Both the position numbers and the translations under genes were made by a program. This document shows, in pieces, positions 7,394 through 16,137 of a stretch of DNA of 41,798 bases. The DNA comes from a virus (taxonomy: Duplodnaviria > Heunggongvirae > Uroviricota > Caudoviricetes), in IMG/VR virus record IMGVR_UViG_2563366805_000010, positions 1 through 41,798 of that record; one strand, written 5' to 3'. Position 1 is the stretch's first letter. Each line of letters starts with the position of its first letter. Under the pieces are notes generated by a model. The model made no database searches. It had not been told where the DNA came from and worked only from the letters and a program-made list of their open reading frames with translations.

Positions 7394-7467
7394 ATAGTAT
7401 CGCCAAGGCGATTGTTTGGCAAAGAATCGCATAGGCGATTGACAATCGCTAAAGTGATATACATAAT
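7394..7467. promoter_or_regulatory. OR region: divergent PRM and PR with three palindromic operators
   Basis: PR TTGACA (7439-7444)-17 nt-CATAAT rightward; PRM on minus strand TTGCCA-17 nt-TACTAT leftward; operators ATCGCCAAGGCGAT (7399-7412), ATCGCATAGGCGAT (7426-7439), ATCGCTAAAGTGAT (7445-7458). Confidence 0.6.
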
Positions 7468-8427: not shown

Positions 8428-8592
8428 ATGCCAAAGAGCAAAAAGTACCAGGAAAATGAGGAACGACGCCTTCAGGATTCCCCTGACGGGCTGGTGGTTG
8501 CCGCGTCAAAAAACAGGGCGTTCGCCGAACGTCTTGTTGGCGTGATCCGTCTGGCTCTCGCTACGTCGGGAGTGAAAAATGGGCGTCGTTAA
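8428..8592 (+). CDS. Small hypothetical protein (54 aa)
   Basis: Below track cutoff; ATG with GAGG upstream; 3' end overlaps the O-like gene start. Confidence 0.3.
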   Translation: MPKSKKYQENEERRLQDSPDGLVVAASKNRAFAERLVGVIRLALATSGVKNGRR

Positions 8593-9469
8593 GTTAGCAG
8601 ACTACAGGCCGCCGCTGGAGGTCGTGGAGCATCGCGTGGCGCAGCTGGAAGATGGTTTTACTCGTGTTGCTAATGAGCTTCTCGATGCTGTCATGGCATC
8701 CGGACTAAGCGAAACAGAGCTGTGTGTCGTCCTCGCTGTTTGGCGCAAGACGTACGGCTACAACAAGAAGATGGACTGGGTTAGCAATGACCAGCTTGAG
8801 CAGATGATTGCCAAGCATCACACACACTGTTCGACTGCAAAAAATCAGCTTGTTGCCAAAAAAGTCTTGGTCCAGGAGGGGCGTAGCGTGGGTATGAATA
8901 CCAGCATCATCGAGTGGAAAACAAAGATTAACGGATTCTGCAAAACATTAGCTAAACCTGCTAAGGATTCTTTAGCGGAAGTTGCTAATAAAAACTTAGC
9001 TGAAAGTGCTAAGGAAACATTAGCGGAAGGTGCTAAGGATGATGGTGAAACCTTAGCAGAATCTGCTTTTGAAACTAAGCAGGATCTGCTAACCACAAAA
9101 GACAATATACAAAAGACAATAAACAATACCCCCCTACCCCCAGAGGGGGAGTGTGTCGGGCAGGAAGAAAAACCTGTCACAAAGAAAACTCAGATCGACT
9201 ACCAGGCGGTGCTGTCTGCATACAACACCACCCTGGGAGACCGCCTTCCCCAGGCAGAGGCACTAAACGACAAACGTCGCCGTGCTATCAAACGCCTGCT
9301 GACCGAACTGAAAGAGCCAACCGTCGAGGCGGTGGAGAATTACTTCGCCGCTTTCGCTGAGCGAGCACCAAAGTTTTACTTCGGTGAGAACGACAGAGGC
9401 TGGCGCGCCAGTTTCGATTATCTGTTGCGCTCTGACACCCTGCTGAAAACCAGGGAGAAAGCGCTATGA
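8579..9469 (+). CDS. Replication initiator (lambda O-like replisome organiser)
   Basis: N-terminal EDGFTRVANELLDAVMASGLSETELCVVLAVWRKTYGYNKK typical of the phage replisome-organiser N-domain; iteron-like repeats inside the gene; followed by helicase. Confidence 0.8.
   Translation: MGVVKLADYRPPLEVVEHRVAQLEDGFTRVANELLDAVMASGLSETELCVVLAVWRKTYGYNKKMDWVSNDQLEQMIAKHHTHCSTAKNQLVAKKVLVQEGRSVGMNTSIIEWKTKINGFCKTLAKPAKDSLAEVANKNLAESAKETLAEGAKDDGETLAESAFETKQDLLTTKDNIQKTINNTPLPPEGECVGQEEKPVTKKTQIDYQAVLSAYNTTLGDRLPQAEALNDKRRRAIKRLLTELKEPTVEAVENYFAAFAERAPKFYFGENDRGWRASFDYLLRSDTLLKTREKAL
8946..9067 (+). repeat. Iteron array (putative origin) inside the O-like gene
   Basis: About five tandem ~24-bp units with core TTAGC(G/T)GAA..GCTAAGGA encoding LAExAK repeats; followed by an A-rich stretch and a CCCCC-AGAG-GGGGG hairpin at ~9129-9150. 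Confidence 0.55.
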
Positions 9470-10863
9470 CCGACATGAACATGATCCCGCAGAACATCGA
9501 AGCCGAACAAAGTGTGCTGGGCGGCATGATGCTGGATAGCGGTAGCGATCGCTGCCAGACCGCCATGTCGATGCTCAAACCAGAATCGTTCTACATCCGC
9601 CCCCACCAGGTGATTTTCGCCGAGATGCGGGAGCTGGCAGCCAACCAGAAGCCTATCGACCTGATCACCCTGATTGAGTCGCTGGAATCTAAAGGGCTTG
9701 GCGAGCAGGCTGGTGGCTTCGCTTACATGGCCGAGATATCCAAAAACACTCCCAGCGCGGCGAACATCGTTCACTACGCCATGCTGGTGCGCGAGAAAGC
9801 CATGGAGCGTTACGGCATTGACAAGCTGAACAGCGCCACCGAGCTGCTGTATTCCCGCAACGGGATGACCACCAGCCAGAAGTTTGACGCTATTCAGACC
9901 CTGTTCACTGATATCGCTGACTACGCGAAAACCGGTAACCGCCGGGGGCTCCGCGAGTTTTCGGAAGTGATGGGCGACTGGGTGGACGAGGTGGAAGCGC
10001 GCTGGAGCGACTCAGACGCAACGCGTGGACTGTCGACGGGGATTGGCTCGCTGGATGACCTGCTGCAACCGAAAGGACTGGTTAAAGGCGCTCTGATGGT
10101 GATCGGCGCACGTCCGAAGATGGGTAAAACCACGCTGTATAGCCAGCTGGCCGTCAACTGTGCCGAAGTTGAGCAGCTCCCCGCGCTGATGTTTAGCCTC
10201 GAAATGCCGGATAAGCAGATTGTGGAGCGCATGGTGGGGCAGGTGAGCCGCGTAAATACCGATGTGTTTTATGGCGATCGGTACGACGACACAAAAGTCG
10301 CAATGGCCTTTGCTGCCGCTGGACGGCTGGCCCAGAACGGAAACCTGTACGTCGACGACACGCCCGGGATCACGCTGGCGCATATCGTCGCAGAGTCACG
10401 TCGCATCAAACGCGAACGCGGCGCTGTCGGCATGGTGCTGGTGGACTATCTGACCCTGATGACCGCCGACAAGGCTGACCGTAACGACCTGGCCTACGGG
10501 ATTATCACGAAGGGGCTGAAGAACCTGGCGAAGGAACTGAACTGCATCGTGGTGCTGCTTACCCAGCTGAACCGTGATCTGGAGAAGCGCACTAACAAAC
10601 GCCCGATGCCGAGTGATTCCCGCGACACCGGGCAGATTGAGCAGGATTGTGATTACTGGATCGGCATCTACCGCGAAGGCGCATACGACGAAAACGCAGA
10701 TCAGGCGGCTACCGAATTGCTGTTGCGCCTGAACCGCCACGGCCCGACCGGCGTTGTGTATTGCGACCAGCGCAACGGTGCGATCTACGACTGTGACCAG
10801 GCTGCTGCTGAGCAGAAACGCCGCGCGAATGATGCCAGACCCAACAAAAAGAGGGAATTTTGA
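9466..10863 (+). CDS. dnaB: DnaB-family replicative helicase
   Basis: 465 aa; Walker A GARPKMGKTT, Walker B region VLVDYLTLM; N-terminal DnaB-like domain. Confidence 0.9.
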   Translation: MTDMNMIPQNIEAEQSVLGGMMLDSGSDRCQTAMSMLKPESFYIRPHQVIFAEMRELAANQKPIDLITLIESLESKGLGEQAGGFAYMAEISKNTPSAANIVHYAMLVREKAMERYGIDKLNSATELLYSRNGMTTSQKFDAIQTLFTDIADYAKTGNRRGLREFSEVMGDWVDEVEARWSDSDATRGLSTGIGSLDDLLQPKGLVKGALMVIGARPKMGKTTLYSQLAVNCAEVEQLPALMFSLEMPDKQIVERMVGQVSRVNTDVFYGDRYDDTKVAMAFAAAGRLAQNGNLYVDDTPGITLAHIVAESRRIKRERGAVGMVLVDYLTLMTADKADRNDLAYGIITKGLKNLAKELNCIVVLLTQLNRDLEKRTNKRPMPSDSRDTGQIEQDCDYWIGIYREGAYDENADQAATELLLRLNRHGPTGVVYCDQRNGAIYDCDQAAAEQKRRANDARPNKKREF

Positions 10864-16062: not shown

Positions 16063-16137
16063 GGGTCAGAAGCACAGAGGTTGTGAGATCGGCTGTTAAC
16101 CGATTGGTCGAAGGTTCGAATCCTTCCTGTCCCGCCA
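16063..16137 (+). tRNA. tRNA-Asn (anticodon GTT)-like gene
   Basis: Hand-folded cloverleaf: acceptor GGGTCAG/CTGTCCC (one T-T mismatch), D-stem 3 of 4 pairs with GG in loop, anticodon stem ATCGG/CCGAT with loop CTGTTAA, 5-nt variable loop, T-arm GAAGG-TTCGAAT-CCTTC, discriminator G and encoded CCA. Confidence 0.5.

Follow-up and report, generated by a model that had tools for sequence, protein, structure and literature searches.

Origins of lambdoid phages and the locus analysed

In phage lambda, four iterons and an AT-rich tract lie inside the initiator gene O, and six iterons are found in Shiga toxin (Stx) phages (PMC7466680), while gene 18 of phage P22 carries four repeats of about 20 bp (bioRxiv 10.1101/2020.10.05.325894). 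Footprints on six-iteron Stx origins showed efficient binding of four iterons only, and the two extra iterons of phage P27 were weakly bound, yet their mutation abolished plasmid establishment (PMC7466680). Three iterons are enough for lambda growth and two for replication in vitro (PMC7466680, discussion), and plasmid-borne lambda iterons can inhibit an incoming phage (PMC3349717). The DNA analysed here, referred to as the window, is the complete 41,798-nt IMG/VR record IMGVR_UViG_2563366805_000010, and the element in question is an array of palindromic repeats, followed by an A-rich tract and a further inverted repeat, within a gene for an O-like replication initiator. By comparison with these systems, positions 8928-9149 of the window are very probably the theta-replication origin of a lambdoid Escherichia coli prophage, placed inside its own initiator gene, in the part that codes for the linker. 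The parts of the gene and of the putative origin are as follows.

8579..9469, plus strand: O-like replication initiator gene with the putative origin inside; open reading frame of 296 amino acids, Pfam Phage_rep_O
8579..8944, plus strand: part of O coding for the N-terminal domain (origin-binding, by homology), including the motif HHTH at amino acids 80-83 (8816-8827)
8928..8944: degenerate site ("iteron 0"), TTAACGGATTCTGCAAA, two mismatches, 20 nt before iteron 1 and at the position of lambda iteron 1
8948..8964: iteron 1, TTAGCTAAACCTGCTAA, canonical, perfect half-sites, found in 80 of 80 relatives
8972..8988: iteron 2, TTAGCGGAAGTTGCTAA, canonical, perfect half-sites
8996..9012: iteron 3, TTAGCTGAAAGTGCTAA, extra and lineage-specific, perfect half-sites
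9020..9036: iteron 4, TTAGCGGAAGGTGCTAA, extra and lineage-specific, perfect half-sites
9053..9069: iteron 5, TTAGCAGAATCTGCTTT, extra, two mismatches, right half-site degenerate
9076..9092: iteron 6, TAAGCAGGATCTGCTAA, one mismatch, canonical last site beside the A-rich tract, in a frame different from that of the other copies
9093..9128, plus strand: A-rich tract, presumed DNA-unwinding element, 64% A on the top strand and 75% A+T, with two copies of ACAAAAGACAATA
9129..9149: inverted repeat C6-TA-C5-AGA-G5 (C5-AGA-G5 at 9137-9149), equivalent to the palindrome that lambda has on the right of its AT-rich region
9150..9469, plus strand: part of O coding for the C-terminal domain, P22 gp18/HK97 type

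Iteron array in the O-like gene

The core repeat is a 17-nt palindrome, TTAGC-N7-GCTAA, of which six clear copies and a possible seventh lie inside the O-like gene, the successive spacings from 8928 being 20, 24, 24, 24, 33, and 23 nt. A sequence-only reading of this DNA had reported about five in-frame repeats; their location was right, but the clear copies number six (perhaps seven), and the last of them, at 9076, is out of frame. When at most one mismatch was allowed, the pattern was matched five times in the 41.8-kb window, all inside 145 bp, against 1.09 matches expected window-wide, and the Poisson probability of at least five matches in such a span is about 6e-15. The array (8928-9092) is located after the Phage_rep_O domain (amino acids 19-113, Pfam E = 1.5e-32) and before the gp18-like C-terminal domain. 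As a whole it folds well (z = -4.1), which merely reflects the palindromic repeats, and an antisense open reading frame of 111 amino acids at 8845-9180 was treated as a by-product of the same repeats. An Rfam scan gave no match in the origin region and only a tRNA elsewhere.

Relatives were collected by scanning IMG/VR with the N-terminal domain, which yielded 80 loci at 73-100% identity. Iterons were present at the same offset after the N-terminal domain in 80 of 80 loci, and elsewhere in these loci of about 3.3 kb just one further match with at most one mismatch was found. Iteron 0 is conserved as DNA in the relatives (pairwise diversity 0.08, and 0.045 at third positions), and its binding by O is uncertain.

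Comparison with known origins

The window and lambda ori agree in location, which is midway along the initiator gene where the linker is encoded, in having palindromic sites of about 17-19 bp, in spacings of 20, 24, and 23 nt, in an adjacent strand-asymmetric A-rich tract that shares ACACAAAAGACA, and in a palindrome to the right; the N-terminal domain of lambda O is likewise a Phage_rep_O domain, 39% identical to that of the window. They differ in their half-sites (TCCCTC/GAGGGA in lambda, TTAGC/GCTAA in the window), in the number of sites (four and six to seven, respectively), in the C-terminal domains, which are unrelated, and in the replication partner, which is the P loader in lambda and a DnaB-type helicase in the window.

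The origin of P22, in gene 18, agrees with the window in gene order (orf-18-12), in the type of C-terminal domain and in the DnaB-like helicase downstream, and P22 gp18 is 47% identical to the O-like protein overall (over 288 amino acids) and 57% in the N-terminal domain. The annotated P22 rep_origin (NC_002371, 32840-32984) spans the counterparts of iteron 0 through the C/G palindrome, and its part made of the A-rich tract and the C/G palindrome is almost identical to that of the window. P22 differs in having TTACC..GGTAA iterons, the motif APTK, and four sites. HK97 gp54, ST104 gene 18, and HK446, on the other hand, share with the window the TTAGC-N7-GCTAA half-sites, HHTH, the A-rich tract, the C/G palindrome, the type of C-terminal domain, and the helicase partner; they differ in an N-terminal domain that is 54% identical, in central 7 nt resembling CAAGTCG, and in having four sites only. 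The window is a P22-type module (gp18-type C-terminal domain and DnaB helicase) with the origin specificity of HK97/ST104-type initiators. "P22-type" was rejected as a name for the iterons themselves, since P22 has other iterons and the half-sites are of the HK97/ST104 type.

The closest relatives of the N-terminal domain in the phage collection were Salmonella phage SEN34 and Erwinia phage vB_EhrS_49, whose first two iterons are identical or near-identical to those of the window. Both differ in having the canonical short array; SEN34 further has a right half of lambda type, including the lambda palindrome, with a lambda-type C-terminal domain and a P gene, and vB_EhrS_49 has another C-terminal domain. 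The Stx phages 933W and P27 resemble the window in an array extended beyond four sites and in an in-frame extension of the O linker (13 amino acids there and 27 in the window) (PMC7466680). Their iterons are of lambda type and the extra ones stand at the promoter-proximal end, whereas those of the window stand between canonical iterons 2 and 3.

An origin inside an O-like gene after the manner of lambda, as the sequence-only reading had proposed, was supported: the protein contains a Phage_rep_O domain, the helicase gene comes next, the array occupies the position of the lambda and P22 origins, and the A-rich tract is homologous. The sequence features of a lambdoid origin were all present, namely a place in the initiator gene, at least three dyad repeats of about 17-19 bp at intervals of about 20-24 bp, an A-rich tract, an inverted repeat on the right, and constraint at the DNA level together with co-inheritance. 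In plasmid-type iteron origins, iterons lie outside the rep gene, the Rep protein is a winged-helix protein of the RepA/pi kind, and DnaA boxes are usually present. An origin of this type (pSC101, R6K, P1) was rejected, the iterons being inside the initiator gene and no plasmid Rep family being matched; DnaA boxes were not searched for.

Conservation of the repeats as DNA

Mean pairwise diversity was calculated by codon position over 49 distinct relatives with the canonical array. In the N-terminal domain it was 0.135 at first, 0.072 at second, and 0.422 at third codon positions, a normal coding signature. This signature is gone in the iterons, where third-position diversity was 0.03-0.19. All eight third-position columns in the half-sites were invariant, compared with 9% of third positions in the N-terminal domain, and diversity was 0.05 in the half-sites versus 0.17 in the central 7 nt.

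Selection might instead act on the protein, an L-A-E-x-A-K helical linker being maintained and the DNA repeats being a by-product without a role in cis. Five iterons are indeed in frame and encode L-A-x-x-A (L-A-E-x-A-K type), a similar and helix-prone peptide in each copy, and the 24-nt period is divisible by three. Peptide selection, however, does not explain why each unit is a DNA palindrome. Iteron 6 (9076) lies in the other frame and encodes TKQDLLT, yet keeps the DNA consensus, and the last iteron of the relatives is likewise out of frame, 23 nt from the preceding copy. In the array, 5 of the 7 leucines are encoded by the rare codon TTA; the rest of O uses it for 1 leucine in 24, and the helicase gene for none of 43 (Fisher P = 7e-4). 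The same account is opposed by the invariance of the half-site third positions, by the greater variation of the central 7 nt, and by the copy number, which ranges from 3 to 6 across the relatives, so that linker length is loosely constrained. It is considered extremely improbable. What is conserved in the repeats is the DNA and not the peptide; conservation in the protein sequence alone, named in the sequence-only reading as the finding that would speak against an origin, was looked for and was not what the relatives showed, their DNA being conserved beyond coding need.

Modular inheritance of the N-terminal domain and iterons

Among the relatives, the module consisting of the N-terminal domain and the iterons was combined with five or more kinds of C-terminal domain. 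A lambda-like C-terminal domain was followed by a P gene in 21 of 21 cases, and the other three large classes of C-terminal domain were followed by a DnaB-like helicase in 60 of 62. The module was also found with differing immunity regions. Citrobacter phage Omnitron has a differing N-terminal domain and iterons (TGTATCC..GGGAACA), and its homology to the window resumes at about 9112, inside the A-rich tract, which from this alignment looks like a recombination junction between modules. The arrangement is the classical lambdoid layout, in which the N-terminal domain goes with the iterons, the C-terminal domain accompanies a helicase or loader, and exchange takes place at the origin. In the lambda record, misc_recomb sites are marked in the AT-rich tract.

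Half-site identity and the HHTH motif

When the whole of IMG/VR was scanned for three perfect iterons 24 nt apart, 25 stretches were detected; 24 of them adjoin an O-like N-terminal domain (30-100% identity), and the remaining one is truncated where its locus ends. The motif at the HHTH position and the half-sites were compared among initiators as follows.

Six TTAGC lineages (the window and five others at 26-68% N-terminal domain identity): HHTH at amino acids 80-83, half-sites TTAGC..GCTAA
P22 gp18 (57% N-terminal domain identity): APTK, half-sites TTACC..GGTAA
Lambda O (33% N-terminal domain identity, alignment A3): PVKR, half-sites TCCCTC..GAGGGA
Omnitron O (34% N-terminal domain identity, alignment A3): SRSK, half-sites TGTATCC..GGGAACA

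In these alignments, half-site identity follows the motif at the HHTH position rather than overall similarity, and HHTH is a candidate specificity determinant for TTAGC half-sites. A profile of nine N-terminal domains, compared with the PDB, gave a sub-threshold match (E = 0.24) to winged helix-turn-helix segments of MarR- and CRP-type proteins. In the alignment with MarR-type proteins, HHTH falls at the beginning of the recognition helix, a placement that is suggestive only. A sequence search of the PDB with the whole O protein returned matches at chance level only.

The repeats might be sites for another protein, such as a repressor or a host factor, or might have an exclusion or decoy function, rather than being bound by O. 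Binding by O is itself putative, and the inhibition of incoming phage by plasmid-borne lambda iterons (PMC3349717) is compatible with such a role. The iterons, however, travel with the N-terminal domain of O through different immunity, C-terminal, and helicase modules, their half-sites track HHTH in O, and no other match with at most one mismatch occurs in the window. Recognition of the repeats by a protein other than O is accordingly given a very small probability.

Expansion of the array

The canonical array of the relatives consists of three good copies, 24 and 23 nt apart, and a degenerate site 20 nt upstream. The same spacing of 20, 24, and 23 nt separates the four annotated iterons of lambda and the sites in gene 18 of ST104 and HK446. 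Relative to all canonical relatives, the window contains the following insertion, which in the alignment falls between canonical iterons 2 and 3.

8990..9070: in-frame insertion of about 81 bp (27 codons) with iterons 3-5, boundaries approximate because of the repeats

The ancestral array has four sites at 20, 24, and 23 nt, and the lineage of the window gained about 81 bp with three more. The three extra sites probably bind O too, and lengthen the linker by 27 residues. The six-copy form was restricted to loci with an N-terminal domain at least 97.5% identical to that of the window. Seven distinct arrays of this expanded lineage (six variants and the window) had 13 variable columns, none of which fell in the 60 half-site columns (hypergeometric P = 6e-4).

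The extra iterons (8996, 9020, and 9053) could also be neutral products of tandem duplication or slippage, with the canonical four as the working origin. The expansion is limited to one shallow lineage, the large majority of relatives function with the canonical array, and the right half-site of iteron 5 has decayed; the Stx phages, moreover, bind only four of six iterons efficiently, and three suffice for lambda growth and two in vitro (PMC7466680). These observations are opposed by the absence of variation in the half-site columns of the seven arrays, by the divergence of central and spacer bases between copies of which two out of three keep perfect half-sites, and by the P27 extra-iteron mutation that abolished plasmid establishment (PMC7466680). 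Neutrality of the extra copies is judged unlikely, though well within consideration.

Arrays of about six to eight TTAGC-N7-GCTAA iterons were also seen in three IMG/VR contigs (L091, L103, and L110) whose O N-terminal domain is about 30% identical to that of the window. Expansion of the array happened more than once, because these distant lineages have expanded as well. In a limited literature search, no paper on the TTAGC-N7-GCTAA iteron class or its expansion was found.

A-rich tract and C/G palindrome

The A-rich stretch that the sequence-only reading had placed after the repeats was confirmed at 9093-9128. At its start, ACACAAAAGACA is invariant in an alignment that includes lambda, and 9076-9141 of the window is about 87% identical to many O genes of P22-like, HK97-like, and Stx phages, with flanks that give no match. 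The C5/G5 hairpin described in the same reading exists as an inverted repeat at 9129-9149, but when folded alone as DNA its stability was no greater than that of shuffled sequences (z = -0.54). The C/G palindrome is significant because its position is conserved in relatives, not because of hairpin stability. An inverted repeat starts 36-49 nt past the A-rich anchor in almost all right-hand modules of the relatives, and a stem of at least 5 bp is present at this position in 88% of sequences compared with 21% of shuffles. At least seven unrelated stems occur there across right-hand modules (L001-L088), those seen being CCCCC/GGGGG, CCCAC/GTGGG, CCTCC/GGAGG, CGTCAGA/TCTGACG, GTCATC/GATGAC, GTCCGAT/ATCGGAC, and CAACC/GGTTG; lambda has the inverted repeat GTCAGAGAATTC/GAATCCTCTGAC at the equivalent place. 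By these comparisons, the right-hand palindrome is taken as a conserved origin feature, whose structure or symmetry is kept without conservation of sequence.

Alternatively, the C/G hairpin and a T-run on the minus strand could form an intrinsic terminator of leftward transcription and be no part of the origin. In a consensus scan, minus-strand positions 9148-9129 scored as terminator-like, with TATTGTTTAT coming next, and the layout of a hairpin beside an A-tract recurs in relatives. Terminator-like sites in the region, however, numbered 4 against 3.1 in shuffles, which is no excess, the run of T is a weak one, a scan to 9700 detected no leftward promoter downstream, and the same element lies inside the annotated rep_origin of P22. 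A terminator in place of an origin element is therefore regarded as very unlikely, and the terminator-like score at 9148-9129 (minus strand) is probably incidental.

Proposed mechanism

The repeats, their clustering and symmetry, the constraint on them at the DNA level, their co-inheritance with the N-terminal domain, and the homology to known origins are established by the present analysis. From the biology of lambda and P22 (PMC7466680, PMC12663957, PMC3349717, and established knowledge), the binding of O, the opening of the DNA, the recruitment of the helicase, and whatever the extra sites may do are inferred. Briefly, dimers of the O-like protein would bind the palindromic iterons through an N-terminal winged-helix domain, with HHTH likely involved, and the O-some formed on the array would destabilise the A-rich tract beside it (9093-9128). 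The C-terminal domain of O, which presumably contacts the phage helicase, would recruit the phage's own DnaB-type helicase (9466-10863) and not a loader of the lambda P type, and transcription from a pR-like promoter probably crosses the origin. Assembly of the O-some may be strengthened or modulated by the extra iterons, which may equally be near-neutral.

Several points weigh against this interpretation. For the window sequence, binding, unwinding, and origin firing are all deduced by analogy. Iterons 0 and 5 are degenerate, and by comparison with the Stx origins, where four of six iterons are bound (PMC7466680), some copies in the window may be weak or idle. The expanded lineage is little diverged (N-terminal domains at least 97.5% identical), so that selection on the three extra copies is supported by 13 variable columns, and the power to detect it is small. 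The assignment of HHTH to a recognition helix comes from a PDB profile match that falls short of significance (E = 0.24), a single-sequence AlphaFold2 model (mean pLDDT, the predicted local distance difference test score, 42) was too poor to confirm the layout of domains and linker, and the C/G hairpin in isolation has no more than the stability of shuffled sequence.

The origin is almost certainly of ordinary lambda type, its sole unusual feature being the three extra repeats to which the initiator would putatively bind. A more specific proposal joins three parts, namely that the extra iterons are functional in an O-some of six to seven sites, that HHTH determines TTAGC specificity, and that the right palindrome is a structure-specific origin element. 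Taken together these are put forward tentatively, as a combination that is possible and has a less than even chance of being correct. If true, the extra iterons would imply an altered control of initiation, of the kind described for the additional iterons of Stx phages, HHTH would constitute a simple and swappable recognition code for O-type initiators, and the right palindrome would have a structure-specific role, for example in helicase loading, rather than being an accident of coding.

Neighbouring genes and the prophage

The window is a lambdoid prophage. The features around the O-like gene that bear on replication are as follows.

7439..7467, plus strand: pR-like promoter TTGACA-17-CATAAT, 5' of the cro-like, cII-like, and O genes; consensus match only
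9466..10863, plus strand: DnaB-like replicative helicase gene, analogue of P22 gene 12; 465 amino acids, Pfam DnaB and DnaB_C

The start of the helicase gene overlaps the end of the O-like gene by 4 nt. Three regulatory genes precede O: a minus-strand gene for a cI-like S24 repressor, a Cro/YdaS-like gene with a near-consensus promoter before it, and a cII-like gene. The pR-like promoter at 7439..7467 is a possible source of transcription through the origin. Between the S24 repressor and cro-like genes, 7394-7467 contains divergent promoter-like sites in a pR/pRM-like layout, TTGACA-17-CATAAT (plus strand) and TTGCCA-17-TACTAT (minus strand). An open reading frame of 54 amino acids (8428-8592, plus strand) overlaps the start of O and has the same place as P22 orf48 and HK97 gp53, and similar small open reading frames are annotated in vB_EhrS_49, ST104, and HK446. 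The 33-nt sequence conserved in lambda oop/pO was absent from the window at up to three mismatches.

Six complete E. coli chromosomes carry an identical or near-identical (at least 99.8%) O gene, annotated "replication protein". E. coli 730V1 and TOK-001 have an identical copy. In one of the six chromosomes, that of E. coli ET846 (L008), O is annotated as frameshifted and the helicase gene as truncated, so that this prophage copy is decaying. Positions 1575-25000 of the window are 97.7% identical to Citrobacter phage Omnitron, with 78% of the 25-kb query covered. Positions 1-2497, the integrase/excisionase end, are 98.9% identical to phage phi80 and the remainder is not phi80-like, which indicates a mosaic. 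A tRNA-Asn (GTT) gene is carried on the prophage at 16063-16137 (plus strand; Rfam 55.4 bits, ARAGORN).

Significance

None of these findings overturns current understanding. LmuB, a protein of the Lamassu defence system, has been reported to accumulate at phage origins during lambda infection (PMC12663957), and the place and structure of an origin in a prophage are of some practical interest for this reason. For annotation, the origin is placed for a prophage family represented in E. coli and in Citrobacter, Salmonella, and Erwinia phages, and an iteron class, TTAGC-N7-GCTAA, is defined. The covariation of HHTH and TTAGC provides a directly testable candidate specificity determinant for O-type initiators, and the expanded array adds to the Stx phages a second, independent case in which the role of extra iterons may be asked.

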